DNA of 64,000 nt, taken from an uncultured Gammaproteobacteria bacterium (lineage in GTDB: Bacteria > Patescibacteriota > Patescibacteriia > Magasanikbacterales > UBA922). The stretch spans positions 402,111 to 466,110 of the forward strand of contig CAZQXB010000001.1 of assembly GCA_964597575.1 (NCBI GenBank). The letters run 5' to 3'. Under the pieces are notes generated by a model. It worked only from the letters and a program-made list of their open reading frames with translations, ran no database searches and had not been told where the DNA came from. The position numbers were made by a program, and so were the translations under genes. Of this stretch, positions 1 to 42,424 are shown piece after piece (positions within the stretch are counted from its first letter, which is position 1; each line of letters starts with the position of its first letter).

Positions 1-35
1 TAAAATAAGTGCGCACATAGCGCTTGTCTAAGAAA

Positions 36-62
36 CAGTCCGGTTGAAAGACCGGCTTTTCT
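36..62 (+). terminator. intrinsic terminator-like hairpin (gtccggt-tgaaag-accggc + T-run) upstream of tRNA promoter
   Basis: Inverted repeat followed by a T-tract, seen directly in the sequence. Confidence 0.4.
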
Positions 63-66
63 TATA

Positions 67-96
67 CTTGATTATTTTTTGTTCCTACGGTATAGT
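67..96 (+). promoter_or_regulatory. putative sigma70 promoter for tRNA-Trp (TTGATT-17-TATAGT)
   Basis: -35/-10-like hexamers with 17-nt spacing about 20 nt upstream of the tRNA. Confidence 0.4.
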
Positions 97-116
97 GGGG
101 CTATATTTTGAAACAT

Positions 117-189
117 AGGCCTGTAGTTTCAATGGTAAAACATCGGTCTCCAAAACCGAGGTTCCGAGTTCGAGTCTCGGCGGGCCTGC
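117..189 (+). tRNA. tRNA-Trp (anticodon CCA)
   Basis: Manual cloverleaf: 7-bp acceptor AGGCCTG/CGGGCCT (one G-U), anticodon stem TCGGT/ACCGA with loop CTCCAAA, T-arm CCGAG-TTCGAGT-CTCGG, 72 nt. Confidence 0.8.
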
Positions 190-193
190 AATG

Positions 194-247
194 AAAAACA
201 TGGCTATATAAAGCCATGTTTTTTGTACTCGCAAACGGAATCAAACT
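194..247. repeat. inter-cassette repeat, partial copy 0 (terminator hairpin aaaaacatggct..agccatgtttttt + diverged 3' motif ctcgcaaacggaatcaaact)
   Basis: Shares the hairpin and 3' motif with copies at 1486, 4889, 6911, 10175. Confidence 0.6.
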
Positions 248-339
248 GCTTTCAATTTTATTATTAAGATTTAGTGTTAGAGATACTCATTATATGGTAG
301 TATAAGAGCCACTAGTTAATTATTTTCGTTATAGTTTTC

Positions 340-1467
340 ATGAAGATCGCTACAAACGTACATCGAGATGCCTTTGGTGGTATTACTATTTCCAATCTCG
401 CTCTTTTTGATTGGTTGAAAGATAAAGAAGATACCGTAGTAGGCATTGAAATTATTACAAGTCGACATTTGCTTGGTCCCGTTATATTTCGTCATTATTT
501 ACCATCTTTTTTTCAACATCATATTATCAATGGTATTGACATTATTCCACGTTTTTCTTGGGAAAGACGTGGAAATCTTCGAAAAAAATGGAATATTCTT
601 GTTGAAAATACAAAAGATATTTTACGTCAAGAGTCACCCGACGTCGTTTTGCTTAATGGTACTTATAGTACTCCTTGGATTTTGGCACAGGCAGCAAAAG
701 AGTTAGGAATACCATTAGTTCTACGATATGCAGGAGTTCTTCAAAAAGAAGTGAGTCATAAAAATTTTTTTGTAAAAAAAAGATTGTTATTTTATGAAAA
801 ATGGATTGCGTCTTCTGCTACAAGTATTATTTTTCCTTCTCGTATCTGTCAAAAAATTGTAGAAAAAGAAATATTAGGTCAGAGTGTGAATTGCAGCGTT
901 GTTATTTCTAATCCAGTTGTTCCTGCAAAAAAATTGGTACGGAGAAAAATTGGGCGTTTCACTATCTCTGCCATAGGGCGATGGACGCCAATTAAAAATT
1001 TTCAAGCATTTGTAGCTTTGCATCGTGAGCTTCTCTCAGAAGGGTGGCAACATCGAGCCGTTATGGTAACATCGTATTGGGATGAAAACTTTGATATCCC
1101 TGAAACGATTGAGAAGAAAAAGCAAATGAGTCAAGAAGATCTTTTCAAATTTTATCGATCAGTTGATCTTCTCATCGTCCCTTCACATTTTGAGACGTTT
1201 TGCAATGTCGCAGCAGAAGCTCTTATTTGCGGAACTTCTGTGTTAGTATCAAAAAATGTGGGATTTTCTGAGATACTCATAAAGGCCGGATTGAAAAGAA
1301 TGGTAATTGACTCATTTGATAATCCTAAAAAGGTTGCTGAAGCGGTGAAACGAATTGCTAAAACAAAACTCACGCAAAAAGAAGTAAAAAAAATTGCCCT
1401 TTTACTCAACCCACAAGACATACACCAGGGTATACTTGATGTTCTTGGTGGTGTTATAAAGGTATAA
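340..1467 (+). CDS. glycosyltransferase, GT4-like (GT-B fold)
   Basis: C-terminal motif VPSHFETFCNVAAEALICGTSVL typical of GT4 retaining glycosyltransferases; 375 aa; about 33% GC. Confidence 0.6.
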   Translation: MKIATNVHRDAFGGITISNLALFDWLKDKEDTVVGIEIITSRHLLGPVIFRHYLPSFFQHHIINGIDIIPRFSWERRGNLRKKWNILVENTKDILRQESPDVVLLNGTYSTPWILAQAAKELGIPLVLRYAGVLQKEVSHKNFFVKKRLLFYEKWIASSATSIIFPSRICQKIVEKEILGQSVNCSVVISNPVVPAKKLVRRKIGRFTISAIGRWTPIKNFQAFVALHRELLSEGWQHRAVMVTSYWDENFDIPETIEKKKQMSQEDLFKFYRSVDLLIVPSHFETFCNVAAEALICGTSVLVSKNVGFSEILIKAGLKRMVIDSFDNPKKVAEAVKRIAKTKLTQKEVKKIALLLNPQDIHQGILDVLGGVIKV

Positions 1468-1485
1468 GTCTAGGATGTAAAATTT

Positions 1486-1607
1486 GGAATATAAATATAT
1501 TCCTTCTCCTCACGGAGAATAGTTCCCACCTCCTTCACCAAGTTCTGCACCGAAAAACATGGCTAACTAAAGCCATGTTTTTTGTATACCCGCGTGTGGA
1601 ATCGAAC
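1486..1607. repeat. inter-cassette repeat copy A (right 120 bp of element)
   Basis: ggaatataaa...cacgg..agttcc.acctccttcaccaag.tctgcaccgaaaaacatggct..agccatgttttttgtatacccgcgtgtggaatcgaac. Confidence 0.7.
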
Positions 1608-1697
1608 TAAATGGTGTTTTTGCTATAAAGAATCTACGCACTTGCAATATAAAATATAAATGGCAAGCTATATACAATCATTTACTATCTATAAACT

Positions 1698-2135
1698 ATG
1701 CCTAAGAAAAAATTGCAACATCAAAAAGACATTAATGGTTGTGGTATAGCCTGTATATCCAATCTATTGGGTAAGCCATACGACTGGATTAAGAAGGATT
1801 TTGAAGATAGATTTTATACCATTGAAAGAGGGGTAAAGATTTTTGATGTTGTTTCATATCTAGAAACACACAAGCTTAAATATAAGAGTAAATTTTTTAA
1901 CCAAAATAAGAAGTCTAAAGTAGACGTCGGTGAAGCAGATGCATTTTCTAAAATACCAGGGTCTATAACGTTAATTGCTAAAAATAAAACGTACCCTATT
2001 GGGCATTATTTACTCCGAACCAAAGATGGTTGGGTGGACCCATGGTATAACTTTCCAAGTATAGATAATGTACGGGCTGGGATGAGAAAAGAGCTGCCTG
2101 GTAACCCTTGGTATGTTATGTATCCAATCGCTTAA
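1698..2135 (+). CDS. papain-like cysteine peptidase, C39-like domain protein
   Basis: Q-x5-NGCGIACISNLLG catalytic Cys motif and downstream GHYLL His motif resemble the peptidase C39 family. Confidence 0.45.
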   Translation: MPKKKLQHQKDINGCGIACISNLLGKPYDWIKKDFEDRFYTIERGVKIFDVVSYLETHKLKYKSKFFNQNKKSKVDVGEADAFSKIPGSITLIAKNKTYPIGHYLLRTKDGWVDPWYNFPSIDNVRAGMRKELPGNPWYVMYPIA

Positions 2136-2206
2136 ATAAGCAGGTTCCAAGTTCATTCTGTACGGCCTACTAGCGTGTAATTCGTACTGGATTCTGAAAG
2201 AGCTGT

Positions 2207-2803
2207 ATGGTAGTCTCTATTAAAGATTATATGGCACAAAATACCTCATTTGAATATTTAGTAAGCGAGATTAGGGCTACTAGTTCTCAAACTTTTGTCA
2301 TTGCCATTTCAGGCTTTGGGGGTTCTGGAAAAAGCACAATAGCGAAGAAATTGGTAGAAGCACTTAAAGATGCTACTATTATCCCTCTTGATGATTTTAT
2401 CATGAATCGTCTCCAAGGCCGTTCTTTGGAGTGGGCATCTTTTGATTGGCAACGATTAATAAAAGAGGTGTTACTTCCAATAAGAAAAAGAGAAAAAAGC
2501 ATCGAATATGGTGTGTATTCTTGGATAGAAGATAAGGTGGCTCAGAAAAGAACAGTAGAGATCAAAAAGTACGTTATTATTGAAGGGGTCGGACTTATCC
2601 GAGATTCTTTGCAAGAATACTTTGATTGCACCGTATGGATCGATACCCCTTTTGATATAGCGATTGCTAGGGGTAAAAAACGTGATAAGGAAGAGTATAG
2701 TATAGATCATGACAAGCTTTGGGATGAAGTGTGGGGTCCAAATGATAAGGATTATTTTGATACATTTAAACCTAAAGAGAAAGCCGACTTCGTTCTTTCC
2801 TAA
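2207..2803 (+). CDS. P-loop nucleoside kinase (uridine kinase/phosphoribulokinase family-like)
   Basis: Walker A AISGFGGSGKSTIAKKL; VIIEGVGLIRD...VWIDTPFDIAIARGKKRD resembles the Udk/PRK family. Confidence 0.5.
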   Translation: MVVSIKDYMAQNTSFEYLVSEIRATSSQTFVIAISGFGGSGKSTIAKKLVEALKDATIIPLDDFIMNRLQGRSLEWASFDWQRLIKEVLLPIRKREKSIEYGVYSWIEDKVAQKRTVEIKKYVIIEGVGLIRDSLQEYFDCTVWIDTPFDIAIARGKKRDKEEYSIDHDKLWDEVWGPNDKDYFDTFKPKEKADFVLS

Positions 2804-2812
2804 AGAAGAGTT

Positions 2813-3733
2813 ATGAAGACTAAAAATACATACCAACTTCCTATTGTCTTAGCACACGTTACAAAAGTCGCAAAAGAAGGTATTGCTCATGTTGGTGACC
2901 TCATTCATTCGATTGACTACGATGCACCAATCGGTACCCCAATTACCGCTGCCCTTGATGGTGTTGTTATTGCTATAAAGCAAGATTCAGATCAAGGTGG
3001 AGGCGATCCAAAATATGAGAATGATGGAAATTATATCGAAATTCTCCATGAGAATGATGAAGTTTCAGAATACGAACATATTCTACAGCATTCTGCTAAA
3101 GTAAAGATAGGCGATGGGGTTAAAAAGGGGCAGGTTATTGCATCAGTCGGAAATACAGGGTGGAGCGAGTGTCCGCATCTTCATTTTATGGTGTACCCAA
3201 AAGGTGAGGAATATAAAACACTTGAAATTCAGTTTGAGAGTGAAGAATTCGTTGACCTGGTTGATAAAGAAGGGCGGATGCAAAAAACTCAAGTACTACG
3301 TTCAGAAGTGTCGAAGTATCCTAATTTACACATGCAAATTGTTATTGCAGTAATTTTAGATAACCAACAAAGAATTTTAGTCCATAAGAGAGCATCTACA
3401 AAAAAGGTAGATCCTGGAGCTGTCGATCATGTCTGTGGTGGGGTTCAGTCAGGAGAAACACCGATTGAGGCCGCTATACGAGAAACTACCGAAGAAACTG
3501 GGCTCGTTCCATGTAATCTAAAAGTCGTCATGCAAGGGCTAAATTCCTATGGCCGATATCGGTATTTACTTTTAGGTGAAGCCCAAGGAGAACCATCAGT
3601 TGATCCGAAAGAGGCAGAATGGGTACGCTTTATCTCGGTGGAAGATTTAAGAAATCTTTTTGAGAGTAAAAAAGAAGCTTTTGTTCATGAATTTTTTAAG
3701 GATACGGATTTAGCTATTCGTGCTACTGTCTAA
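2813..3733 (+). CDS. M23 (LytM-type) metallopeptidase domain fused to a NUDIX hydrolase domain
   Basis: M23 HxxxD and HLHF (HxH) motifs in the N-terminal half; NUDIX box GGVQSGETPIEAAIRETTEETGL in the C-terminal half; no signal peptide. Confidence 0.6.
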   Translation: MKTKNTYQLPIVLAHVTKVAKEGIAHVGDLIHSIDYDAPIGTPITAALDGVVIAIKQDSDQGGGDPKYENDGNYIEILHENDEVSEYEHILQHSAKVKIGDGVKKGQVIASVGNTGWSECPHLHFMVYPKGEEYKTLEIQFESEEFVDLVDKEGRMQKTQVLRSEVSKYPNLHMQIVIAVILDNQQRILVHKRASTKKVDPGAVDHVCGGVQSGETPIEAAIRETTEETGLVPCNLKVVMQGLNSYGRYRYLLLGEAQGEPSVDPKEAEWVRFISVEDLRNLFESKKEAFVHEFFKDTDLAIRATV

Positions 3734-4835
3734 GTATATGGAAATAAAGGCATTTTTTGGAATACTTTCATCTCTCTTCATCTTTTTAGGAGGTATTCCT
3801 TATTTGAGGGATATTCACTTAAGAAAGGCGCACCCGCATGTTCTTTCATGGATTGGCTGGGCTTTCATAACAGCTCTAGGAGCCTTTGCCATGCTGGCTG
3901 GGGGTAGTCAGTGGGCGGTTGCTATATTGCTCAGCAATACCCTTCTCTGTCTTCTTATTGTCCTATACTCAGTTTTTAAAAGAGTTGGCGTCTGGTCAAC
4001 CATGGTATGGGACTTTGTATTTTTTGGACTTGGGTTACTTGGGCTTGTGCTTTGGCAGACACTTCATCTCCCCATTCTCGCCCTCATCTGTGCGATTATT
4101 GCTGATTTTTCTTTCGGTCTCCCCACCATTGTTAAAACGTATAAAGATCCAAACTCAGAAACTCCTTTTGTCTGGGCTACTGCCACAATATCCGGAATAT
4201 TTAGTCTATTTGCTATAAGAAGTTTTGCTTTTTCTGAAGTTGCGTATCCATTGTATCTTTTTCTCTATGATGGAATTGTACTTCTTTTAGTGCTTAAGAT
4301 TTTTGTTAAAAAAAATAAAAATATTCGAAAATTGCTGGATACAATTGTTAATGAAAAAAATGAAAAGAACTGGTATGTTCCAGAATTATTTCAGCAGAAT
4401 ACGTTACCAATTTTACCAAGGGAGTTAAAAGTTATCGCTCTGCCTCCCTTATATGATGAAAACTACAATTGTTTTATCTATGCTCTGGGATTGTCGAATA
4501 ATCTTGAATTTATTAAGAAGGTGTCTGGTTTTATCTATAGCCCATTTGTTAAGAAGTTAATCGAAGAAGGAGTCCTTCGGGAATCTAAAGAAATAAAGAA
4601 AGGAACAATTATTTTATATACCAATGAAAAGAAATTTCCTGGGGAAATAGCGCATGCTGGGGTGATGAAAGATAAAGACACTGTTATTTCAAAATGGTCT
4701 TGGGGACCCACCTTAGAACATTCTCTGCTATCAGTACCTCTTTCGTATGGTGAAACATTGAAGTTTTATCATTTAGAATCTACAAATAGTGTTTTATTAG
4801 CATACGAGAAATTTAGTGCACTTAATAGGGCTTGA
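3720..4835 (+). CDS. polytopic membrane protein with C-terminal putative Cys/His hydrolase-like domain
   Basis: Five or six hydrophobic helices at the N-terminus; C-terminal NCFIYALG ... HAGVM Cys/His spacing like NlpC/P60 or CHAP-type folds. Confidence 0.35.
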   Translation: MLLSKYMEIKAFFGILSSLFIFLGGIPYLRDIHLRKAHPHVLSWIGWAFITALGAFAMLAGGSQWAVAILLSNTLLCLLIVLYSVFKRVGVWSTMVWDFVFFGLGLLGLVLWQTLHLPILALICAIIADFSFGLPTIVKTYKDPNSETPFVWATATISGIFSLFAIRSFAFSEVAYPLYLFLYDGIVLLLVLKIFVKKNKNIRKLLDTIVNEKNEKNWYVPELFQQNTLPILPRELKVIALPPLYDENYNCFIYALGLSNNLEFIKKVSGFIYSPFVKKLIEEGVLRESKEIKKGTIILYTNEKKFPGEIAHAGVMKDKDTVISKWSWGPTLEHSLLSVPLSYGETLKFYHLESTNSVLLAYEKFSALNRA

Positions 4836-4888
4836 CTGGTAAGTTGTTATCACGAATTAACCTCACACCTCAACTCACTATAGTTTGA

Positions 4889-5051
4889 GATATAGTGAGT
4901 ACTACTGTGGGGTAAGTGGAGAAATACTCGGAATATAAACATACCCTTTCTCTTCACGAATAATAGTTCCGACCTCCTTCACCAAGCTCTGCACCGAGAA
5001 ACATGGCTATAATAAGCCATGTTTTTTGTATACCCGCGTGTGGAATCGAAC
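4889..5051. repeat. inter-cassette repeat copy B (full, about 165 bp; preceded by 10-bp perfect palindrome aactcactata/tatagtgagtt at 4872-4900)
   Basis: Direct alignment to copies C and D. Confidence 0.75.
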
Positions 5052-5066
5052 TTTATGTATACTGGA

Positions 5067-5095
5067 TTGACAAAATACTCTTTTTGTGGTATTAT
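5067..5095 (+). promoter_or_regulatory. sigma70 promoter TTGACA-17-TATTAT driving the high-GC gene at 5250
   Basis: Consensus hexamers with 17-nt spacer; AGAGGAG RBS 9 nt before the ATG. Confidence 0.55.
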
Positions 5096-5249
5096 CTTTA
5101 GTCAAATTGTGTTTCAAAAATTACTAAATTTAGGTCATTTTACTGATTTAAATCTAGAAGTTTTTGACTGCTATAGCTAAACTTCTATCTTAGGTATTTG
5201 CTTAAGATATTGGTTCTCTACAATTCAATCGAAAGAGGAGTGAAGAAAA

Positions 5250-6785
5250 ATGGATAACAAGTTCTGTCCTCACGGCAAGCACGTGAAGTTCTGCGGCGAA
5301 TGCGGCAATCTGTGGTTCGAAGTGCAGGCGCCCCATGTCTGGATGAACAGCATGGACCCTGGACGAGATGCGGGGATCGGTCTGATGAAAGAGCGTCACG
5401 GTATCGTCACGGTGACTGTCGAGCAGCACCATCCGAGCCTCGGTCTTCTCGACAAGTCTGTGGTGATGGTGCATGTTACGGGACATCTCTTCGTTTGGGG
5501 TATCGAGAAGATTCTCGAAAACGCCCCGAACGTCAAAGAGATTCAGGTTCAGCCACACATGGTGAAGAAGCTGACCGACGCTCACCGTACTCTCTGTGCA
5601 AAAGCTGGAGTCAAGTTGACGAGCGGATACTCAGACCCTGACCGTGCTTGGGAAAAAGGTGAGGTGAGACGGTCGCCACGTTTCCTAAAGATACGGAAGT
5701 TCTTTCAGCTTCTCGAAGGCCAGCAAAAAAAGCTCTTCGACGAGCTCATCGAGTATGGTATCGAGTCGGCCCTCATGGCTCGGGACTACTACGAGGAAGC
5801 AAGTGACGGAAAGGAGGGGGAGGAGCCTGTCACACTGCATACTCTGTGTAAAAAGTACGGGTACAACGACAGTGTGATGGCCCACATCTCAGCTCGGATT
5901 TACTCCGTGCTAGTGTACCTCGATCCTAATTACAAAGTGGGGCAGGATTCGCGACGGCTTGCTCGTGTCATGAAGGATGATGTTGAAAGGCTTCGTGAGA
6001 AGTTCGCGACTGCAAAAGCAAGGCAGGATCAGGCAGCCGCGCTTGGTCTCCGAATTCTTCCTGTCGACATGCCACTGCAGCTCTACGATGAGTTGGAGAT
6101 GGTTGTTACTGCCCAGAGGAAGGGCTGGCTGAAGCAACTCCAGGCTGCAAGGCCGCGAGCGCATCGTGCTCTGACGCTGAGGTACGACATACGGGATACG
6201 CAAAATCCGCGTTTTCGTACCCTCGAAGAGGTGGCCGAGACGATGGGTGGCGAGGATTTCAAGACGCGCGAGAGAGCTCGTCAGTTGGTGGAGCAGGCTA
6301 TCGAGTTTTTCGTCTTGCAAGGACAGGCAAGCGGTGAAACTCTGAGAGCTGGACGCGTGCAGGAGAAAGCGACGAAGATCGTCCAGAAGAAGGCCGCTCG
6401 GGCAAAGGCTGGTCCTGTAACTCAGTTGACCAAGGTTCCTGGTCCCGTCGAAAAGCAGGTGGTGAACCTGGTTTGCCAGTCTTATGGCTTGCCTGAGACT
6501 GAGATCTTCACTCACGGCAAAGATCAGCCGTGGGCAGAAGCTCGACAGGTCATCATGGCTCTGTGGAGACGGTACCTCAACTGGTCCTACCCGCTGATCG
6601 CAAGAGAGATGGGTAAGGAAGATCACACGACGATCATACATGGTTGTCGAGAGATCGCCAGTCGTCGGAAGACCGACCGAGTGCTTGAACAGCGGATGAC
6701 GCTGATCGAGATGATGCTCGGCAAGCCGCCGCCCGACTTGAGCGCCATCGAAATTTCCCCAGATCCTTCCACTGCCTCGCAATGA
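5250..6785 (+). CDS. high-GC Zn-ribbon / sigma70-region-4-like HTH / DnaA domain IV-like HTH fusion protein (putative DNA-binding regulator or replication-initiator-like)
   Basis: N-terminal CPHGKHVKFCGECGN; RALTLRY..RTLEEVAE..TRERARQLVEQAI resembles sigma70 region 4; EARQVIMALWRRYLNWSYPLIAREMGKEDHTTIIHGCREIASRRKTD resembles DnaA C-terminal domain IV; about 58-60% GC against flanks of about 33%. Confidence 0.6.
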   Translation: MDNKFCPHGKHVKFCGECGNLWFEVQAPHVWMNSMDPGRDAGIGLMKERHGIVTVTVEQHHPSLGLLDKSVVMVHVTGHLFVWGIEKILENAPNVKEIQVQPHMVKKLTDAHRTLCAKAGVKLTSGYSDPDRAWEKGEVRRSPRFLKIRKFFQLLEGQQKKLFDELIEYGIESALMARDYYEEASDGKEGEEPVTLHTLCKKYGYNDSVMAHISARIYSVLVYLDPNYKVGQDSRRLARVMKDDVERLREKFATAKARQDQAAALGLRILPVDMPLQLYDELEMVVTAQRKGWLKQLQAARPRAHRALTLRYDIRDTQNPRFRTLEEVAETMGGEDFKTRERARQLVEQAIEFFVLQGQASGETLRAGRVQEKATKIVQKKAARAKAGPVTQLTKVPGPVEKQVVNLVCQSYGLPETEIFTHGKDQPWAEARQVIMALWRRYLNWSYPLIAREMGKEDHTTIIHGCREIASRRKTDRVLEQRMTLIEMMLGKPPPDLSAIEISPDPSTASQ

Positions 6786-6910
6786 GGCGCCCTTGAGCTC
6801 ACGCTCGGGCTTCGCGACTTCGGGTCAGTCGCAACAAATCAAACCGTCCCGATAGGTGATACTATCGGGAACATTCAAAACATCATCTCACTCGAGGTGA
6901 TTTTTTGTTT

Positions 6911-7074
6911 ATATATAGTGAGTATTACTCTCGGGTAACTGGTAAAAGGCTCGGAATATAAACATATCCTCTCTCTTCACGTATAATAGTTCCGACCCCC
7001 TTTACCAAGCTCTGCAACGAGAAACATGGCTATACAAAGCCATGTTCTTTGTATACCCCTGTGTGGAATCGAAC
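6911..7074. repeat. inter-cassette repeat copy C (full)
   Basis: Direct alignment to copies B and D. Confidence 0.75.
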
Positions 7075-7214
7075 CAAGGTGTAGTTCTAAAGAAAACTTT
7101 ATGATTTTTTTATCTAGGGTATGATATGTTCCTTTAGTTATTCTGAGTACCCTATTGTATACTCGACATACCGTGTATTCTTCAGTAGGGTACGCCCAGA
7201 ATAATCTATTTTCT

Positions 7215-7880
7215 ATGAACCGTAAAAACAACACTCTCATTGCATTACTAGTAGTTATCGTTATTCTCCTTATCGGAGGGTATGTTGTACTTGTCCAAAA
7301 AGAAAACGAACCAATGGTAGGTCCAGATAATGGAAATGGAACATCGGTTGAAATTCCATCTACCACACCATCTTCTAGTGAAGAGATAGTAAATAATGGA
7401 AGTTGGGAAAAATATACTTCTCCAGATTTGGGTATTTCATTTGAATATCCAGCAAGTCTTAGTCTCTTTCAAGAGCGTAAGGATACTGACCGCGGAGAGG
7501 GAAATTTTGTCATTCTGAAACGTGAGAATGAGCAGAGAAGATTTCTAGGAACAGTACTGGTAAGTTCTCCTGATTATATACGAGAAATTGATGGTTTTCC
7601 TTCCTATATGTCAGGAGATTATTTTTTGGATCAAAGCGAAAGTGAGATAGAAAAAATTATTAGACAGAGAATTCATGCGGTTACAGCCATTACCAAAATG
7701 CCAAATAATTTTTATGCAATTACGCAAGAATATGTGTTTGGTGATAATCCTGTAAAAGGGACATTTTATTTCACTCAAAGAAAAAATAGTGAGTTACTTA
7801 ATGTAAGTATATATCAAGTTGATGGGGTTATTAGTAAGCAAGAAGATTTAGAGAATTTTTTAGAAAGTTTCAAATTTTAA
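7215..7880 (+). CDS. hypothetical membrane-anchored/secreted protein
   Basis: ORF with N-terminal hydrophobic anchor MNRKNNTLIALLVVIVILLIGGYVVL; track ORF begins at 7155. Confidence 0.4.
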   Translation: MNRKNNTLIALLVVIVILLIGGYVVLVQKENEPMVGPDNGNGTSVEIPSTTPSSSEEIVNNGSWEKYTSPDLGISFEYPASLSLFQERKDTDRGEGNFVILKRENEQRRFLGTVLVSSPDYIREIDGFPSYMSGDYFLDQSESEIEKIIRQRIHAVTAITKMPNNFYAITQEYVFGDNPVKGTFYFTQRKNSELLNVSIYQVDGVISKQEDLENFLESFKF

Positions 7881-8013
7881 AGTTAGGAGAATTTGGTTGA
7901 GGTGATTGCGTACATGCTTGGCAGTATCCTCAACCAAATTTTGGCTGAGGTTCTTTCTAGAACTCATTGGATAACCCGATGATACTGCAAAGAAAAAATG
8001 AAGGGGTGCTGAC

Positions 8014-8110
8014 ATGCAGGCGATCGTTCGTTTTCTGCTATGTATGCTGGTGTTCTGTCCGTGGTTCGCTGCGGCAGATTACCAGGGACCTGTGTTATTT
8101 TCACCCCCCA
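8014..8110 (+). CDS. possible small high-GC hydrophobic peptide (MQAIVRFLLCMLVFCPWFAAADYQGP...), 3' extent uncertain
   Basis: GAAGGGG RBS 7 nt upstream of the ATG; high-GC hydrophobic N-terminus; reading frame runs on into AT-rich promoter-like sequence without a stop. Confidence 0.2.
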
Positions 8111-8171
8111 CTGTAAAAAATATTTACCTTAACACAAAAAAATGTTATGATAAAATCATAAGGAGGTGCAA

Positions 8172-8477
8172 ATGTCGGAATTCGAAAAAGATGCTGCGGT
8201 GCAGCTTGTGGCTGTGCTGCTTGTCGGCGGACTGCTTGTCCTGATCGCCCTGCACTTTGTTGTCTATTTTCTCTTCAGAGGCGTGCAGCCATTGGCTGCT
8301 GCTAGGATGCCTGCCACAGATCAATCTTTTTTAGAGCCAGATGCCACGCCTTGCGATGAAGAAGATCCTGAAGAGATGCGACAGTGCACAGATGCATGGG
8401 TGAGGGCAAGAGAGGCGGAGGGCGCAACTATCTTGCGGACACGAGACGGGCATGGGATTGTGGCTCTGGGCCCTTAA
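8172..8477 (+). CDS. small high-GC membrane protein with acidic C-terminus (hypothetical)
   Basis: AAGGAGG RBS and extended -10 (TGTTATGAT) upstream; one TM helix; about 60% GC. Confidence 0.4.
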   Translation: MSEFEKDAAVQLVAVLLVGGLLVLIALHFVVYFLFRGVQPLAAARMPATDQSFLEPDATPCDEEDPEEMRQCTDAWVRAREAEGATILRTRDGHGIVALGP

Positions 8478-8529
8478 CGATAGTGAAATCGATCCAGGGC
8501 TCCAGCCTCCAACGATCTGCTTCTGCTCA

Positions 8530-8585
8530 CAGAGTCACTTGCTATTGCTGTGACTCTTTTTTATGTTCCGTGCGTGGAATCGAAC
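8530..8585. repeat. inter-cassette repeat partial copy E (different hairpin agagtcac..gtgactc + T-run, conserved 3' motif ccgtgcgtggaatcgaac)
   Basis: 3' motif matches other copies. Confidence 0.55.
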
Positions 8586-8597
8586 TAAGTTAGATCA

Positions 8598-9236
8598 TTG
8601 AAAAGAATGAGGCTTTATGCTAGTGCATGTGTATTCTTAGATCTATCTTCTATTTTGTTTATTATGAATAATAAAGGTTTGTACGTCATCATTGCGTTTC
8701 TTTTGGTCATCCTTTGCGTTGTTGGATATAAAGCATATTCTGTTTCTGATCGTACATTGTCTCCAAATGAGCAGTTCTTAAATCAAGAAAATAACCCATC
8801 AAATGAAAATAAAGGCAATACGCTTACTGATTCTCTCAAAAACAGTAAGGGTTATAGCGCTGGCGATACACGTGATATCTCTTCGTTATCTAGTTCGGAT
8901 ACGAGTAAAGAACTCGATATTGCATTGATCCAGGATGTTAAAACTATTCAAAATCAAAATATCTCTTATAAGTTTTATCGAGTTGGATTTGGCGATGCGC
9001 CTCCACACTATAGTAATGGACAAATTATCGTTGAAGTAACGACGAATCAAAAAGGTCCAAGTCGATGGTATTATTTTAATACTGATATTATTGATGCTGA
9101 TTCTATTGAATCACTCCTGTTTAGTGGTGAGGATGTGCGTATGTCTTGTAAAACAGGTAAACCAAATGGTACATGTTTATATACGATAAAATTTCAACCA
9201 GACTTGGAGATGTTAAAAATTTATAAAGTAAATTAG
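8598..9236 (+). CDS. hypothetical membrane-anchored secreted protein
   Basis: ORF; TM anchor LYVIIAFLLVILCVVGY; real start may be an internal Met near 8663. Confidence 0.4.
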   Translation: MKRMRLYASACVFLDLSSILFIMNNKGLYVIIAFLLVILCVVGYKAYSVSDRTLSPNEQFLNQENNPSNENKGNTLTDSLKNSKGYSAGDTRDISSLSSSDTSKELDIALIQDVKTIQNQNISYKFYRVGFGDAPPHYSNGQIIVEVTTNQKGPSRWYYFNTDIIDADSIESLLFSGEDVRMSCKTGKPNGTCLYTIKFQPDLEMLKIYKVN

Positions 9237-9378
9237 TAGACCTCCTTGACACTAAGGTTAAATTACGTTAGGATTTCGAGCGACCAAAAGGTCATCACAT
9301 GCGTGGTGATTTTTTGTTTACTCATTCCTGTTCTTGTGTTACTTTTAATTTGTAGAATAACAAAATTTTATTTTTCGT

Positions 9379-10119
9379 ATGTCAGAAGGTCCAAAACGTT
9401 TTGAGTTAGGCCAGATGTTTCTTCGAGAAACAAATAGTATTCCACAAGCAGACAAATGGTTAGAAAACAGGGCTGAATGGATGGTTGGGGCTGCTCAAAT
9501 CAAAAAATATTTGGCACCAAAAATTGAATTTCGTGACAGATTGGCTGGAGAGGTAGAAAAAGGAGTAAAGGTGTTAGCTATTGGTGCAGGAAAAGGACAT
9601 GAGCTTGATGAAATGGACAGCATTCTTCCTGGCTCAGAAATCATAGGTCTTGACCCCGATGATTTTTATTCTCGACCAGTAAAGCAAAAACTAGAAAAAA
9701 CTGCCCATAATGCGTCATATCTTCCAGAAACTATTCGTGCAGAAAATTTAGAGGGTGTAGAAAATGCTTCACTAGATGGTGTAACATTATTTTTTGTACT
9801 CCATCATATTGATGAACAAAAACACGGCGCTGTTTTAAAAGAAATTCATCGTGTTCTTAAGCCAGATGGAAAGGTGTTTATCGCTGAAGATTTGGTAGAT
9901 AACGATGAGGAAAGAAAAATAACCGAAAGAACGGATCGTATTTTGAATACTGAGTTATCAGGCAAGAATTCACATCATTACCGAAGTATTCCTGAGTGGA
10001 AAGTTTTTTTTCATACATACGGCTTTGAAATAATAGAGGTAAGCGAACAGAAGCCTGATAAAGTTCGCCATGGATTTTTTGTATTAGAAAAAGCAAACAT
10101 TTTACAAAATAATACATAG
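9379..10119 (+). CDS. class I SAM-dependent methyltransferase
   Basis: Motif I VLAIGAGKGHEL and post-I acidic residue; LKPDGKVFIAE motif. Confidence 0.55.
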   Translation: MSEGPKRFELGQMFLRETNSIPQADKWLENRAEWMVGAAQIKKYLAPKIEFRDRLAGEVEKGVKVLAIGAGKGHELDEMDSILPGSEIIGLDPDDFYSRPVKQKLEKTAHNASYLPETIRAENLEGVENASLDGVTLFFVLHHIDEQKHGAVLKEIHRVLKPDGKVFIAEDLVDNDEERKITERTDRILNTELSGKNSHHYRSIPEWKVFFHTYGFEIIEVSEQKPDKVRHGFFVLEKANILQNNT

Positions 10120-10174
10120 TCACGGTAGATTTATAATATAATCAACTAAGACGGGGAAGGTTTTTTTGTTTGTA

Positions 10175-10337
10175 GATATATAGTGAGTGCTAGTGTGGGG
10201 TAACTGGAGAAACATATGGAATATAAATTTATCCCTTCTCCTCACGAATAAAGTTCCGACCTCTTTACCAAGCTCTGCACCGAAAAACATGGCTATAACA
10301 AGCCATGTTTTTTGTATACCCGCGTGAGGAATCGAAC
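10175..10337. repeat. inter-cassette repeat copy D (full)
   Basis: Direct alignment to copies B and C. Confidence 0.75.
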
Positions 10338-10351
10338 TAAAATTAAAATGT

Positions 10352-11908
10352 TCACTCTACCTTAAACATGAACATCATGCCTGCTTCGAGATGTTCAGAA
10401 ATATGACAGTGCGCCATCCACGTGCCTAGGTTGGATGGGTCAAGTAATATATCAACTGTTGCTCCGGCCGGAACCATAACCGTATCTTTCCATGCGAGGT
10501 TTGTTTGCGCTACACCGTTCACTGACAGAACAAGAAAGCGCTGACCGTGAAAATGAATCGGGTGTTGCATGGGGTGTGGGGAATTTGGGTCATTATAGAT
10601 TTCAATGCGTACCGGCTTATCTTTTTTGAAAACCCAGTCTATGTCCATATTGGATTTGCCGGTTGCGCTGTCTATGATCTTCCATCTTGTTTCTTTCGTG
10701 GTTGCCATTCTGTTCATCATCTGTATCATGCCCCCCTCGTTTTCCCATTCAATACCATCATTTGACATCCCCATGTTCATGTCATTATGTGCACCTCCCG
10801 TTGACTGCATGTGCTCTGCCATCATGCCTGACAAGTCTACCGACAGTGTGAGTTTTTTATCTATAGCGTTGTGCATGTACGCACGAAATGGATCAATGCT
10901 TGCTTTCACCGCAGCGTTCTCTTGAAGAGTATTGAATTCTTTTGTGTACGAAGGCTCGGCAATATCCGTGCTGACAACGATATTCCCTAACGTTACAGGA
11001 CCGTTTGGAATGTTGTTTTGCAGTGCGTACGTTCCGGCCGTTGCAAACATCACATCCACAATCGCACGCTCCGAGGGGCCAAGAATAACACTATCTTGCC
11101 ACGTCGCTTTTTCATATGATCCATTGTCGCTGCCAAGCAGTTTCAGTTTTGTTCCGGCAATGGCTATTTTGAATGGACGAACATTTGCAGCATTAACAAG
11201 AGAGAGTCGTATCACCTCGTTTGTCTTTGCATCGAGCGTAAAGTGTTCCTGCCCATTGACGAGCATAGTTTGGCCATAATGGCCCATGAGCACCTGGTCA
11301 TTCCGTTCTTTGGTGAGTGCTATGTGGCCGCTCTTGGTCGGCAGGTCAGAAAGAAACAGCACGTGCTGGCTATGTGCGGGCGGATAGTAGGCCGTGTCTT
11401 TGGGTTCAACCACAAACGCACCATAAAGTCCAAGCGCCTGTTCGTACACCTCATGTGTGTGCGGATGGTACCAGAACACCCCAGCATCTGGAAAGGTAAG
11501 TGTGTAGGTAAAAGAACCCCCGGGCGGAATTTCCTCTTGCTGGAGTTGTGATCCATCAAAGGCATTGTCCATGCGCACGCCATGTGAATGAAGAAGTGCA
11601 GGTAAATCTGTGTCATTTTTGAAATTGATCGCCACCTCTGCGCCCTGCGTCACGTGAATTTCCGGTCCCGGGATCATACCATTATAGGCGAGCATGGTTT
11701 GCTTGTGTCCGCCGATGTCTTTCGTTACGTACGCCGCGGTTAAGGTGTAAGTGTCACCGTTTTTAAGATGAATGATCTCATGCGGTTTGGTCTCTTCCGG
11801 TTGCGGTTGAGGTTCTGGTGCAGTGTTTCGGGATGCGAGTATGATAGCACCGATAATGCCGACGATAGTGATTGTGGTAATGATGAGGAGTAGATTCTTA
11901 TAACGCAT
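10352..11908 (-). CDS. multicopper oxidase (CueO/CopA-type laccase-like), secreted
   Basis: C-terminal HCHISEHLEAGMMFMFKV type-1/trinuclear Cu signature; HSHG and WYHPH motifs; probable start at MRYKNLLLIITT signal anchor (the track ORF extends to 12043). Confidence 0.8.
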   Translation of the reverse strand: MRYKNLLLIITTITIVGIIGAIILASRNTAPEPQPQPEETKPHEIIHLKNGDTYTLTAAYVTKDIGGHKQTMLAYNGMIPGPEIHVTQGAEVAINFKNDTDLPALLHSHGVRMDNAFDGSQLQQEEIPPGGSFTYTLTFPDAGVFWYHPHTHEVYEQALGLYGAFVVEPKDTAYYPPAHSQHVLFLSDLPTKSGHIALTKERNDQVLMGHYGQTMLVNGQEHFTLDAKTNEVIRLSLVNAANVRPFKIAIAGTKLKLLGSDNGSYEKATWQDSVILGPSERAIVDVMFATAGTYALQNNIPNGPVTLGNIVVSTDIAEPSYTKEFNTLQENAAVKASIDPFRAYMHNAIDKKLTLSVDLSGMMAEHMQSTGGAHNDMNMGMSNDGIEWENEGGMIQMMNRMATTKETRWKIIDSATGKSNMDIDWVFKKDKPVRIEIYNDPNSPHPMQHPIHFHGQRFLVLSVNGVAQTNLAWKDTVMVPAGATVDILLDPSNLGTWMAHCHISEHLEAGMMFMFKVE

Positions 11909-12107
11909 ATGGATAGAGATTAATACCGATAAGTTATGTGGGTTACGATATGTTTTTTCTGCGGAGAAGCAGGGTGTTACAGACAAACCATTTTTCATAA
12001 AAATGGTGCCGGTAGTGCAGGTGGTTTTTAAATTATTGTACATGAACCACTAGGCTGTGCAAGATCGGCAGTATCTGGCAGATACCCAAGGTAGACGGAG
12101 AAATAAT

Positions 12108-12127
12108 ACCCGTGTGCCGAATTGAAC
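12108..12127. repeat. degenerate copy F of repeat 3' motif (acccgtgtgccgaattgaac)
   Basis: 15/20 identity to the conserved 3' motif, same orientation. Confidence 0.4.
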
Positions 12128-12152
12128 TGAAGTTACATCTTAAACACCGTTG

Positions 12153-12203
12153 TTGCACAGAAAAATGAGGAGGTGTACTATATCCCCTATAGGGGGATAT
12201 ACT
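12153..12203 (+). promoter_or_regulatory. csoR promoter (TTGCAC-17-TACTAT) overlapped by CsoR-type operator palindrome TATATCCCC-tatag-GGGGATATA
   Basis: Pseudo-palindrome with C4/G5 tracts flanked by AT arms resembles described CsoR operators; overlaps the -10 and transcription start. Confidence 0.55.
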
Positions 12204-28223: not shown

Positions 28224-28317
28224 TCTGCTCTTTTTTACCTTATTTGAGAGGAAAAACCATTGACAGACGCAGCTTTTTCTGCTAGGCTTCTCCGCGAGGC
28301 AAAGGAGGCCTGTCTTG

Positions 28318-28863
28318 ATGTGGAAGAAATGGCGTTACCTTCTTGTGGCTGGAGCGGCCTTCATTGCCGCGGGACTTCTGTACTTCTCAACCTACTTCCA
28401 GAATTTGACGGAGGAGGGGCAGGCGGTGCACGGAGTCATCTTCGTCATCATGCTCGCTGTCTTGTGGGTAGGGATTGAGATTGGAGATGCGCAGGCTCGG
28501 TCTGAGCTCCGTGCCCCACAGCATAAGGATCCCGAGGAAGACGACGGCCTCGACGATGATCCCGAGGAGTACCAGGACAGTGTCGACGACGAGGAGGTGG
28601 TAGCGGATTTCAAGTCCACGGTTGAGCGCTGGCTGGGGAAGGATGAGGACATGCTTCAGTGGCTCAGTGATGCTCGTCACTACATGCGGGAAGACAATCG
28701 CGCGGCTGATGATGACGCGCGTGACCTTGCACTTCTCATGGTGGTGTATGCCTATGCTGGTGGGCATGAGTTTCCGAGCGAGCACTACCCTGCGTATCTC
28801 GATGAAGTGCGGACATTCATTGAGTGGCTCAAGGCACGCAACGTTTGGCCTGCTCGCAGATGA
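28318..28863 (+). CDS. hypothetical high-GC membrane protein with acidic cytoplasmic domain
   Basis: Two N-terminal TM helices; DPEEDDGLDDDPEEYQDSVDDEE tract; AAAGGAGG RBS; about 60% GC. Confidence 0.4.
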   Translation: MWKKWRYLLVAGAAFIAAGLLYFSTYFQNLTEEGQAVHGVIFVIMLAVLWVGIEIGDAQARSELRAPQHKDPEEDDGLDDDPEEYQDSVDDEEVVADFKSTVERWLGKDEDMLQWLSDARHYMREDNRAADDDARDLALLMVVYAYAGGHEFPSEHYPAYLDEVRTFIEWLKARNVWPARR

Positions 28864-28885
28864 CGGTTCGCGATCAAGGTTCCCG

Positions 28886-28951
28886 CCGGACACCTTTTCT
28901 CACAAAAGTCCGGTCAATGCAAAAACAGCTTTTACACAAAGGCTGTTTTTG
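28886..28951 (+). terminator. 3' module: hairpin CCGGAC..GTCCGG followed by terminator AAAAACAGC..GCTGTTTTTG
   Basis: Two consecutive hairpins and a T-run; homologous module at 42271-42330. Confidence 0.55.
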
Positions 28952-29314
28952 TTTCTCTTCATGTTTTTTCTTGCGATAATACTCGGTTCAGTCTATGCTA
29001 TAGAGGTAGGTTATTTTAACATACTATATGTCTGCGAACGGAGCACACACCAATCAAGGAGGGCATCATGATCGTGAAGGTCGTTCCAATCAAGATGATA
29101 AACCAGGTTCAGGTCGGGGACGTAAAAAAAGTACAGGTAAAAATAACGCAAAACAGCAGGGCGGTTTGCCTTCCCAAATTGGGAGCCGTGATAAAAAATA
29201 GTTTCAGAAAAATTTTGTTGGGAGAAAGGCGGCCACACGGCTGTCTTTTGGCATTAGGGGCATTTTTGTCAAGCATTCCTAGCCCGTGGTACACTGTCCC
29301 TATACAAACAATAT

Positions 29315-35379: not shown

Positions 35380-35766
35380 TTACGTTTTCTTCTTCAGGGC
35401 CTCCCGCACTCTTTCCTTGAGTTTGCTCGGATCGAAGGGCTTATCGAGGTATTCGTCCACCCCGGCGCTGCGAGCCTCGGCTTCGACGTTGCTTGAGCTC
35501 ACCATGATGATGGGGAACGTCCAGCCGCCCGAACGGATCCTGGTGACCATCTGGAGCCCGTTGGTGCTAGGCATGGCGTAGTCAGTGATGAGAAGGTCGG
35601 GCTTCTCGCCACCGGTGAGCATGTCGCCCACATCATCGGGGTGCGAGTAAGTTCTCACCTCGCAGAATCCCCGGAGAGTTCGGTCCATGGCCCGTGAGAC
35701 CAGTACCTCGTCATCGAGGATCCATACCTCGGGCTTCTTTTCGTTTTTACTGTCTTCTTCTGTCAT
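35380..35766 (-). CDS. stand-alone response-regulator receiver (CheY-like REC) protein, high GC
   Basis: ILDDE acidic pocket, phospho-acceptor LLITDYAMP, conserved K in LDKPF; own TTGACA-18-TATAGT promoter at 35837-35808 on the minus strand. Confidence 0.6.
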   Translation of the reverse strand: MTEEDSKNEKKPEVWILDDEVLVSRAMDRTLRGFCEVRTYSHPDDVGDMLTGGEKPDLLITDYAMPSTNGLQMVTRIRSGGWTFPIIMVSSSNVEAEARSAGVDEYLDKPFDPSKLKERVREALKKKT

Positions 35767-35909
35767 GTCGGAAAATCCTCCCTAAATCAACACTCGTCCA
35801 GACCACACACTATACCACAAAATAGCCCTTTTGTCAAGAGGGGAAAGGGGTGTTCACTTCATCTATTTTTAGCCTAAAAACAGGTGAAGGGAGCCGAGAA
35901 CGTGAGGTA

Positions 35910-37013: not shown

Positions 37014-37946
37014 CTACTGCTTGGGCTGGTACGCTTTGCACACGCCCACAGCGTGCCGCTTCTCCGCAGCGGTGAGTGGGTCGAGTTCTCGGCCGACCTT
37101 CTTCATCCAGGCTGCATCCACGATCTTCTCGCAGAGATTGCCGAGAGAGCCATCGGGGAGGGGCTTGGAGGAGAGAACCATGTGGAGGGTGCCATCGCCG
37201 AAGTAGTATCCGGTGTAGAGGACCATGAGGTACATGGTCTCGTCTCTGGAGTATGCGAATCCACCGTTCTTCTCGTGGTCAGCGATCTCGAGAGACAGCC
37301 TGCGTACGAACCCTGCGGCCCCCGCAACCTGGATCTCGACATTTTCGAAGGTCTCGCCGTCCTTCGCGAAAGGGGTACAGTCCGTGCCTGCTTCCCAAAC
37401 AGGGAGAAGGACATCTGCGCAGGTCTTGTCGAGCATCTCGAACAGTCCGTTGCCTCGGATCCATCGAACCCCTCGGGGGTTAGCGGTCGTCCATCCCGCA
37501 TGAGGATCCTCCTTCGAAACGACGCGAGCGAGGATCTCCAGGAACTCAGCACCATGGGGGGTGCAGCCCCCATACTTCCGGTACAGGGCACTGATCTGGG
37601 ACTTGTTGATCCGAGCGCGCGTACTCGTGAGTACGCGACCCTGGAGTTCGTGGTGATCGAGAGGGCATGGCAGCCCGCTCTGGTCGCCGCTGTTGATCGG
37701 GCTGTCCGTGACCAGGTTGACTGCCTCGATGAGGTTGTTCTTCCTGGTCGCGTACGTCGCGATCTCGCGGTTCAGGGTGCTGATCACCATACTCCGGTAT
37801 CGGGCCGTTGTTCCTGTGTCCGTTCCGGAAGCGATGGTCGACAGCGACTCGGTCGCGACGACACCGTTGCCCTGGCATCCGTTCATGAGGATGAACACGC
37901 TGATTGCGATACTGAGAAGGGCTATTACGATTGCAATACGTGCGAT
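37014..37946 (-). CDS. high-GC secreted/lipoprotein-like hypothetical protein
   Basis: GTG start 6 nt after AAAGGAG; signal peptide MIARIAIVIALLSIAISVFILMNGC; own TTGACA-17-TATAGT promoter at about 38054-38026. Confidence 0.4.
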   Translation of the reverse strand: MARIAIVIALLSIAISVFILMNGCQGNGVVATESLSTIASGTDTGTTARYRSMVISTLNREIATYATRKNNLIEAVNLVTDSPINSGDQSGLPCPLDHHELQGRVLTSTRARINKSQISALYRKYGGCTPHGAEFLEILARVVSKEDPHAGWTTANPRGVRWIRGNGLFEMLDKTCADVLLPVWEAGTDCTPFAKDGETFENVEIQVAGAAGFVRRLSLEIADHEKNGGFAYSRDETMYLMVLYTGYYFGDGTLHMVLSSKPLPDGSLGNLCEKIVDAAWMKKVGRELDPLTAAEKRHAVGVCKAYQPKQ

Positions 37947-38104
37947 CACAGCAAACTCCTTTGGTTGTAAGGTGAACCACTCATGCCTCCACATTGGGGC
38001 AGATATGGCTTCTAACTATAGCATATTTTAGCCATTTTGTCAAGAGATGCGAGCCTCGGAATCTCATTGCTTTTTTGCCTGAGTTGAGCTATACTTGATT
38101 CATT

Positions 38105-41762: not shown

Positions 41763-41774
41763 AAGAATTGCATA

Positions 41775-41814
41775 AAAAAGAAAGAACACTGAACAAGTGT
41801 TCTTTCTTTTTTAT
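41775..41814 (+). terminator. intrinsic terminator (AGAAAGAACACT-gaac-AAGTGTTCTTTCT + T6)
   Basis: Perfect 12-bp hairpin. Confidence 0.65.
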
Positions 41815-41862
41815 TGACACAGAATACGATTGTGCCCTATTCTTCCCCTGAAAGGGGGCTAC

Positions 41863-42246
41863 ATGGCTAAAAAGACACCTGCGAAAAAGCAAAAAACCGT
41901 GGCCAAGAAAAACCCGAAAAAGAAGGCTAAGGCGGTTCGGTACTACTGTGCTGCCTGCGAGTCGAAGGGCGATCCTACGGTCTGGAAGGATCATGACCCT
42001 AAAGCATGTCCGCGATGCGGCGAAGACGGTGACATCTTCCGCGACGAGCTCTTCGAGTGCAACATTTGCGAGGAGACGTGCCCTGAGGCCGAACAAGATG
42101 ATGCCAAGGTCGGCGACCCGTGTAGCATGTGTGCCGTTGATGTGAAGAGTGGAGTAAGAACTCCGGCCAATGCCGGGGCGTGGAAAACGAGGAAGCCGCG
42201 CAAGATCAACTGGTCTCCGAAAGTGCCGGTAGCCAAAAAGAAGTGA
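41863..42246 (+). CDS. high-GC lysine-rich double Zn-ribbon protein (hypothetical nucleic-acid binding)
   Basis: CAAC...CPRC and CNIC...CSMC pairs; K-rich termini; AAGGGGG RBS; about 60% GC. Confidence 0.4.
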   Translation: MAKKTPAKKQKTVAKKNPKKKAKAVRYYCAACESKGDPTVWKDHDPKACPRCGEDGDIFRDELFECNICEETCPEAEQDDAKVGDPCSMCAVDVKSGVRTPANAGAWKTRKPRKINWSPKVPVAKKK

Positions 42247-42270
42247 GGGATGGAAGTCAGGAGGGGGCGC

Positions 42271-42330
42271 GTCCGACGTTCTTCGGACACTACAAAAACA
42301 GCTTTTCCGAGTAAGGCTGTTTTTGTTTTC
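42271..42330 (+). terminator. 3' module: hairpin GTCCGA..TCGGAC followed by terminator AAAACAGC..GCTGTTTTTG
   Basis: Same architecture and near-identical terminator sequence as 28886-28951. Confidence 0.55.
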
Positions 42331-42370
42331 ATGGGCAATTTTATACGTAACCATTGTGGATAGGCAGTAT

Positions 42371-42424
42371 TTGACACCTTAAAACGACGGTGGTATCTTA
42401 TCACTCAAGATATATGAGTGCTAA
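42371..42424 (+). promoter_or_regulatory. hrcA promoter (TTGACA-17-TATCTT) with CIRCE operator TTATCACTC-N9-GAGTGCTAA overlapping the start codon
   Basis: CIRCE consensus TTAGCACTC-N9-GAGTGCTAA matched with one mismatch. Confidence 0.75.

Follow-up and report, generated by a model that had tools for sequence, protein, structure and literature searches.

The genomes of CPR bacteria (Patescibacteria) are tiny and hold mainly core genes besides many unexplained orphan proteins. The window, by which is meant the whole stretch of 64,000 nucleotides that was analysed, comes from a 913,817 bp contig of a small, Magasanikbacteria-like CPR genome. In it, two GC-rich orphan genes at distant positions (ORF A and ORF B) are followed by almost the same non-coding sequence. 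This raises the question of what such a 3' end is: the ordinary terminator of the genome, the edge of a mobile element, a functional RNA, or a chance likeness. The sequence-only reading had taken it to mark one element family with a common 3' boundary. On a slight balance of probability, the module would rather be a terminator/insulator joined to an mRNA-end hairpin, inherited within a 3'-end family that sits on GC-rich, fast-evolving accessory genes of Magasanikbacteria-like CPR bacteria. The features on which the argument draws are the following.

28260-28288, plus strand: putative promoter of ORF A, TTGACA, 17 nt, TAGGCT, read from the sequence.
28318-28863, plus strand: ORF A, 181 aa, with two transmembrane helices, an acidic C-terminal region and a pI of 4.5.
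28885-28914, plus strand: hairpin 1 of module A, GCCGGAC(16 nt)GTCCGGT, from RNA folding and a hairpin scan.
Between hairpins 1 and 2 of module A: the spacer CAATG.
28920-28951, plus strand: hairpin 2 of module A, CAAAAACAGCTTTT-ACAC-AAAGGCTGTTTTTG, then TTT; it reaches 28955 with the U tail.
41772-41814: terminator of the Band_7 gene, perfect over 19 bp and bidirectional, the left edge of a variable slot.
41814-41843, plus strand: putative promoter of ORF B, TTGACA, 18 nt, TATTCT, read from the sequence.
41863-42246, plus strand: ORF B, 127 aa, with 23 Lys (Lys-rich tails), 9 Cys and paired-Cys zinc-ribbon-like motifs.
42271-42288, plus strand: hairpin 1 of module B, GTCCGA-cgttct-TCGGAC, from RNA folding.
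Between hairpins 1 and 2 of module B: the spacer ACTA.
42293-42325, plus strand: hairpin 2 of module B, CAAAAACAGCTTT-tccgagt-AAGGCTGTTTTTG, then TTTT; it reaches 42330 with the U tail.
42355-42424, plus strand: hrcA control region, the right edge of the slot, with a DnaA-box-like TGTGGATAG, a promoter at 42371-42399 and a CIRCE-like repeat.
6847-6911, plus strand: related two-hairpin end after the GC-rich ORF 5250-6785, TCCCGATAG..CTATCGGGA, acattc, AAAACATCATCTC..GAGGTGATTTTTTGTTTA.

Each site, as read from the sequence, consists of a GC-rich hairpin (hairpin 1), a spacer of 4-7 nt and a terminator hairpin (hairpin 2), with site A covering 28885-28955 and site B 42271-42330. The sequences match the earlier description of two 3' UTRs with one two-hairpin layout and near-identical terminators. 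Hairpin 2 has the consensus C-AAAAA-CAGCUUU(U)/(A)AAGGCUG-UUUUU-G followed by UUU, in which the A and U tracts match each other. Folded as RNA, both copies pair perfectly over 14-15 positions, one of them a U.G wobble, and continue with UUUUUGUUU; both lie on the coding strand 47-57 nt beyond the stop codon. The pattern AAAACAGC..GCTGTTTT has exactly two occurrences in the 64 kb window, where 0 are expected from shuffled sequences. The sequence similarity between A and B spans ~35-44 nt, comprising hairpin 2 and possibly TCATG after an indel. As to the hairpin GTCCG..CGGAC, which had been thought common to both sites, the architecture stands and the shared sequence does not: the arms are swapped (CGGAC...GTCCG in A; GTCCG...CGGAC in B) and lie in a different register, so that the two sites have the architecture of hairpin 1 in common, not its sequence.

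Both genes are indeed GC-rich (GC 0.57 for ORF A and 0.55 for ORF B), with GC3 of 0.65 and 0.64 versus ~0.40 in neighbouring genes, and the codon positions of ORF A (GC1 0.69, GC2 0.37, GC3 0.65) give a coding-type pattern. Their earlier descriptions as an acidic membrane protein and a Lys-rich, zinc-ribbon-like protein fit the transmembrane helices, the pI and the Lys and Cys counts, and the two proteins show no similarity to each other, as had also been claimed. ORF A is a strict orphan, since it matched only itself among 5.8 billion proteins and in a HMMER search of 1.84 billion representatives. A word-indexed protein search returned no homologue of ORF B, and neither ORF matched Pfam or PHROG. 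Orthologues of ORF B with the same Cys pattern occupy the same slot in the related loci L061 and L211, at 24% amino-acid identity; the L061 orthologue is at this value next to a HrcA that is 69% identical to that of the window. ORF A lies between an ABC-F gene and a gene of the phosphoglucomutase family, the latter downstream on the same strand with its own promoter. Likewise, hrcA-grpE-dnaK lies downstream of ORF B on the same strand, with its own promoter and a CIRCE-like operator, the inverted repeat TTATCACTC-N9-GAGTGCTAA, which overlaps the hrcA start codon.

The GC-rich segments carry long ORFs on both strands, for example 41991-42404 on the minus strand and 37053-37970 on the plus strand, and the public gene call (Logan contig L060) chooses in these segments the strand opposite to ours. 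ORF B is placed on the plus strand because of the Cys pattern of its orthologues, and the gene at 37014-37994 on the minus strand because of its minus-strand promoter and terminator. Near-consensus minus-strand promoters with a conserved spacer (CTCTTGACAAAAGGGCTA....TGnTATAGT) are found at 35809-35840, 38015-38046 and 59347-59382, where GC-rich genes follow, and the GC-rich gene that fills the slot in L063 has a similar one in front of it. At 35380-35766 (minus strand), a stand-alone response-regulator gene, GC-rich as well, lies between an amino-acid transporter gene and BacA. In L063, a response-regulator gene at 3756-4148 (minus strand) lies between BacA and the gene of the CCA-adding enzyme, and these two genes directly adjoin in L061.

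One possibility is that hairpin 2 is just the terminator that this genome places after many of its native genes. A covariance model built on hairpin 2 (R1) was run over the window and the CPR loci. It scored site A at 54.6 bits on the plus strand and 33.7 on the minus strand, and site B at 52.9 and 31; the sense strand is ahead by ~20 bits because the U.G wobble becomes an A.C mismatch on the other strand. The next-best match in the window had 17.5 bits (E 0.16, 6870-6912) and all others, including the terminators of core genes, had 12 or less. The two copies thus stand at least 35 bits above every other terminator of the window, and hairpin 2 is, within the window, not a generic terminator. 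About 12 perfect A/T-tract terminators were listed in the window, and those of the core genes that were compared (the DEAD-box helicase gene, dnaJ, the genes ending at 52719 and 62185, and Band_7) have other stems, lie within ~10 nt of the stop codon and are without hairpin 1. The search for more copies yielded only sites A and B in the window, by the pattern and by R1 alike, and R1 found none new in the loci.

Other GC-rich genes of the window (5250-6785, 35380-35766 and 37014-37994) end with the same architecture and different terminator stems, the layout being a GC-rich hairpin, a short spacer and an A-tract terminator ending in TTTTTGTTT. For example, the terminator within 6847-6911 is the third-best R1 match in the window, and its stem differs from hairpin 2. 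A second pair of like terminators is found at 6876-6911 and 9285-9320 (CAAAA..TCATC..GGTGATTTTTTGTTTA, 83% identical), one after a GC-rich gene and the other after a low-GC gene. Both positions belong to an AT-rich island at 1-12200 of the window (GC ~0.35 vs 0.46 elsewhere), which starts at tRNA-Trp (117-189). The ORF 5250-6785 (plus strand) is GC-rich within this island and carries a DnaA C-terminal DNA-binding domain (PF08299, E 1e-17); it is otherwise an orphan. The island also contains four copies of a repeat of ~170 nt (1441-1607, 4885-5051, 6908-7074 and 10171-10337), and the last part of each is the terminator GAAAAACATGGCTA..AGCCATGTTTTTTG with CCGCGTGTGGAATCGAAC behind it. On the minus strand, CCGCGTGTGGAATCGAAC reads as a fragment of the 3' T-arm and acceptor of a tRNA, and there are six copies of it. 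The repeats have no match in Rfam and may be serial att-site duplications or a small RNA of unknown kind.

Hairpin 2 has the properties of an intrinsic terminator: a G-C-containing stem-loop followed by a U tract on the sense strand after the stop codon, located between the upstream gene and the next promoter, with a stem that is kept by compensatory substitutions among homologues. With its symmetric A tract, and the stem-loop that precedes it, the module resembles bidirectional intrinsic terminators that have an upstream 3' UTR stem-loop. Each of the two segments would then be the 3' UTR of an accessory unit with a single gene, in which a near-consensus promoter precedes a GC-rich orphan ORF and the module closes the unit. 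Hairpin 2 would serve as a Rho-independent terminator and halt the transcription of the inserted gene before it reaches the promoter of the housekeeping gene that comes next on that strand; the promoters insulated in this way would be that of the phosphoglucomutase gene after A and that of the CIRCE-controlled hrcA-grpE-dnaK operon after B. As the stem runs through the A tract and the U tract, hairpin 2 could in principle act both ways. Hairpin 1, with its gene-specific sequence and conserved shape, most likely stabilises the 3' end of the mRNA or aids termination. That hairpin 2 is almost the same in A and B would go back to a common ancestor, through copying or concerted evolution, in a family spread over Magasanikbacteria-like CPR genomes that appears to be attached specifically to GC-rich, fast-evolving orphan genes in variable intergenic slots.

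The module is not restricted to the window. An exact-match scan of one genome per species gave 59 loci, of which ~24 are in CPR genomes. As these copies were found by exact match, the variation inside hairpin 2 is under-sampled among them; the flanks, which were not part of the search, are conserved there too (tCA before the motif and TGTTT after it). The same module follows unrelated GC-rich ORFs in ~20 other CPR genomes, a finding that points to a common pool of accessory genes, each self-contained. In these loci 32-103 nt separate the end of the upstream ORF from the motif, and a GC-rich hairpin, differing in sequence, ends 4-7 nt upstream of it. Hairpin 1 is present at 18 of 26 family terminators vs 3 of 51 other terminators in the same CPR loci (p 8e-9), and two of these three are diverged relatives of the family. 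Nor is it a by-product of GC-rich sequence, since it accompanies 18 of 24 family sites vs 16% of control positions within the same GC-rich ORFs (p 3e-10). The GC content of the upstream ORF is at least 0.056 above that of the locus at 20 of 23 family sites vs 8 of 41 others (p 2e-7). The cargo proteins are mutually unrelated except for one orthologous pair. Each 8 kb locus otherwise has one copy of the motif, and related genomes have one or two exact copies.

The surroundings of module B permit a comparison among relatives, in which the order of the genes for the CCA-adding enzyme, YidC, Band_7, HrcA, GrpE, HSP20 and DnaK is conserved. The slot between Band_7 and hrcA is empty in L065, L066 and L212 (HrcA identity to the window 51%, 52% and 47%, respectively), and it holds the ORF B orthologue in L211 (72%) and L061/L062 (69%). 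It is occupied by an unrelated GC-rich gene on the opposite strand in L063 (60%), by another unrelated GC-rich gene, again on the opposite strand, in L213 (52%), and by a low-GC gene in L067 (52%). Hence, the slot is a hot spot of gene gain and replacement. An equivalent of the Band_7 terminator stands at the same position in the relatives, and where the slot is empty the next features after it are a DnaA-box-like motif and the hrcA promoter with its CIRCE. The opposite-strand GC-rich genes of L063 and L213 have GC-rich 3' UTR hairpins and terminate at the bidirectional Band_7 terminator. In the window, the occupying block extends from the Band_7 terminator to hairpin 2 and ends ~30 nt before the hrcA control region, which is kept in L061, L211, L063, L065, L066, L212 and L213. 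A presence/absence comparison of this slot thus places the end of the inserted block at hairpin 2. The DnaA-box-like TGTGGATA(A/G) lies just before the -35 of hrcA and is conserved, together with CIRCE, in L061, L211, L063, L212 and L213. In L212 there are ~270 nt (2710-3000) between the CIRCE operator and the annotated start of hrcA, which resemble a degenerate small ORF of the GIY-YIG type.

Among the orthologues, the 3' module is better conserved (nucleotide identity 0.74-0.78) than hrcA (0.69-0.74) and than the coding sequence of ORF B (0.58-0.63). The stem of hairpin 1, GTCCGA/TCGGAC, is invariant in the window, L061 and L211, and its loop varies. Hairpin 2 has drifted (TAGC..GCTA in L211, AGCCTT in L061), with a compensatory change of C-G to U-A in L211 and of the wobble to C-G in L061. 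Among 28 members of the family, four base pairs have changed in both partners, with values that none of 500 shuffles reached; one of these, the outer pair, which lies outside the searched pattern, changed from C-G to U-A three times. The module is under purifying selection for its structure, as expected of a terminator, and module B is vertically inherited with ordinary compensatory drift. Because orthologous copies of hairpin 2 drift, the exact identity of A and B in one genome needs recent copying or gene conversion, and such an event we infer to lie behind it.

A mobile origin of these ends has to be weighed against this. Hairpin 2, with or without hairpin 1, might be the boundary or recombination site of mobile cassettes that shuffle GC-rich orphans between CPR slots, an idea that we consider unlikely. 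The models for it would be the attC sites of integrons or terminators that recombine with one another in tandem arrays. GC-rich orphans with a consensus promoter and a terminator would be exchanged between genomes and inserted between core operons. The recurrence of one 3' end behind unrelated cargo in many genomes and the turnover of the Band_7|hrcA slot speak in its favour. Other examples include L009, L010b and L021, which have in common a three-hairpin 3' UTR of ~75 nt behind unrelated ORFs at non-orthologous loci, so that these copies are homologous and not convergent. Conversely, L010 and L026 have homologous cargo with different 3' ends. In L011, two modules stand in tandem. In addition, part of the hairpin 2 core recurs in direct orientation on the other side of ORF A and so brackets module A; this copy, CAGCTTTT-tctgct-AGGCT at 28270-28288, is without the A and T tracts and forms a direct repeat with 28926-28944. 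It sits in the spacer and -10 of the putative ORF A promoter, 30 nt upstream of the start, and is the only partial copy of the form CAGCTTT N3-10 AGGCT in 297 kb searched on both strands. It could be what remains of a family terminator once located upstream, in the manner of the tandem modules of L011, or a trace of recombination at the hairpin.

Against such cassettes, Pfam found no recombinase, integrase or transposase domain in the ~40 ORFs of the window, and the clustering of ORFs from 24 CPR loci gave no recurrent protein family near the modules other than generic methyltransferases and orthologous neighbours. The units have promoters of their own and are scattered singly rather than arrayed. 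The modules have no common 5' end; what lies upstream of them is alike in its sigma-70 consensus promoters only. Nothing comparable to the repeat upstream of ORF A flanks module B, and one-mismatch relics upstream of the modules were at chance level, the one at position 6941 of L034 falling within a coding region. The vertical inheritance of module B with its compensatory drift is likewise terminator-like, and the exact motif had 0 matches in the viral contigs of IMG/VR. The element family of the sequence-only reading is thus borne out in part: the same module is carried by unrelated GC-rich ORFs in ~20 CPR genomes and the slot block ends at hairpin 2, but mobility machinery, a common 5' boundary and a target-site duplication were not found, module B was inherited vertically, other GC-rich genes of the window use other terminators, and the base of the hairpin follows generic terminator grammar. 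The main text of a survey of gene transfer in Patescibacteria (PMC12455944) describes many genomic islands and individually transferred genes, and there is no mention in it of terminators, cassettes or integrons. It is unlikely that an undescribed gene-cassette system of Patescibacteria is present, with the module as its 3' signature and possibly its recombination handle and the copy at 28270-28288 as a scar.

The likeness of A and B could also be a coincidence within the terminator grammar of the clade (C, A5, stem, U5, G, UUU), with no common history and no family. There is evidence for generic elements in the hairpin. The base alone, CAAAAACAG..CTGTTTTTGTTT, occurs at 120 or more metagenome loci and in 22 viral contigs, in many taxa and with upper stems of every kind, as in generic bidirectional terminators; part of the similarity between A and B is therefore generic. 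About 35 of the 59 exact matches are ordinary terminators in unrelated phyla (Bacillota, Bacteroidota and others); their loops are long, they stand ~15 nt beyond the stop codon and they show no GC contrast. Other terminators of the window are similar in style. Beyond the generic CAAAAACAG/CTGTTTTTG base there are only ~4-5 bp and the wobble, so that some of the exact matches between genomes are possibly coincidental. The family-specific signal is the CUUU/AAGG upper stem with its wobble, together with the links to hairpin 1 and to GC-rich cargo. Random CPR terminators would not show links of this strength (p 1e-7 to 1e-9), and neither the conservation of the unsearched flanks nor the covariation of the outer pair is expected by coincidence. 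Moreover, the homology of L009, L010b and L021 extends beyond the terminator, and the family stem is found in just one of ~130 generic terminators with the same base, among the matches listed. In the window, two of the ~12 A/T-tract terminators share an 8 bp stem, for which the chance is ~0.007 by a rough estimate. A coincidence is for these reasons rather improbable, and we infer descent over convergence.

Still less probable is that the segment is a functional RNA in its own right, be it a 3' UTR-derived small RNA, a cis-regulatory element or a protein-binding one. Small RNAs of the first kind typically show a stem-loop and then a terminator hairpin where the mRNA ends, and the module agrees with this layout, as it does in being conserved above its coding sequence; the invariant stem of hairpin 1 and a G-rich stretch just upstream point the same way. 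However, Rfam gave no family for the window at the gathering threshold and, for both sites at E up to 10, chance-level matches only, each scoring far under its gathering value. Across the family, hairpin 1 keeps no sequence that could act as a single-stranded seed, and neither an internal promoter nor a processing site is evident. To our knowledge, there is no known chaperone context for such RNAs in CPR bacteria.

Several known systems are comparable to the module in part. Unlike ordinary intrinsic terminators, it keeps the same sequence behind unrelated genes in many genomes, is more conserved than its ORF, and is tied to a second hairpin at 4-7 nt and to GC-rich orphan cargo. Integron cassettes similarly combine small, mostly orphan genes of atypical composition with a structured imperfect palindrome (attC) that is partly conserved while the cargo varies. 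However, there is no intI and no array here, and the units have strong promoter-like sites of their own and a U tract on the conserved hairpin. Rather than the RYYYAAC ... GTTRRRY of attC, the base reads CAAAAAC ... GTTTTTG, with pyrimidines where RRR is needed, and the stem has no extrahelical bases, all of its positions being paired, one of them as a G.U wobble. An integron array was rejected on the single modules, their own promoter-like sites and the lack of a recombinase in the ~40 window ORFs or recurring near the modules. Like phage morons, the units are autonomous promoter-ORF-terminator blocks of atypical composition between two conserved genes, but these genes are chromosomal housekeeping genes (ABC-F/phosphoglucomutase and Band_7/HrcA) and not part of a prophage. 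REP/BIME, ERIC and Correia elements are likewise short 3' UTR palindromes that are repeated in a genome and may stabilise mRNA or terminate transcription, whereas the present module has two copies in 64 kb and is conserved across genomes rather than high-copy within one. In comparison with the PATE of IS200/IS605, there is no 5' hairpin common to the modules, the partial core copy being upstream of A only, and TnpA/TnpB domains were not found in a search limited to the window.

The remaining candidates can be dismissed briefly: a MITE or REP element on two copies in 64 kb without RAYT, terminal inverted repeats or target duplication (and no flanking duplication at B), a viral origin on the absence of the exact motif from IMG/VR and on nine of ten cargo proteins without a PHROG match (the tenth matched a family of unknown function), and a DNA-uptake sequence on two occurrences in 64 kb, vs ~1 per kb for uptake sequences.

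For the biology of these bacteria, the module offers a sequence handle for one subset of the orphan genes, namely those that are GC-rich, fast-evolving and apparently strongly expressed and that lie in slots varying between relatives. A 3' UTR that is more conserved than the protein encoded upstream of it is unusual. If the module were a recombination handle, it would represent a route of gene flow in a phylum whose mobile elements are poorly known. If it is a terminator only, it would still be a lineage-specific terminator/insulator and a marker of accessory genes in CPR genomes.
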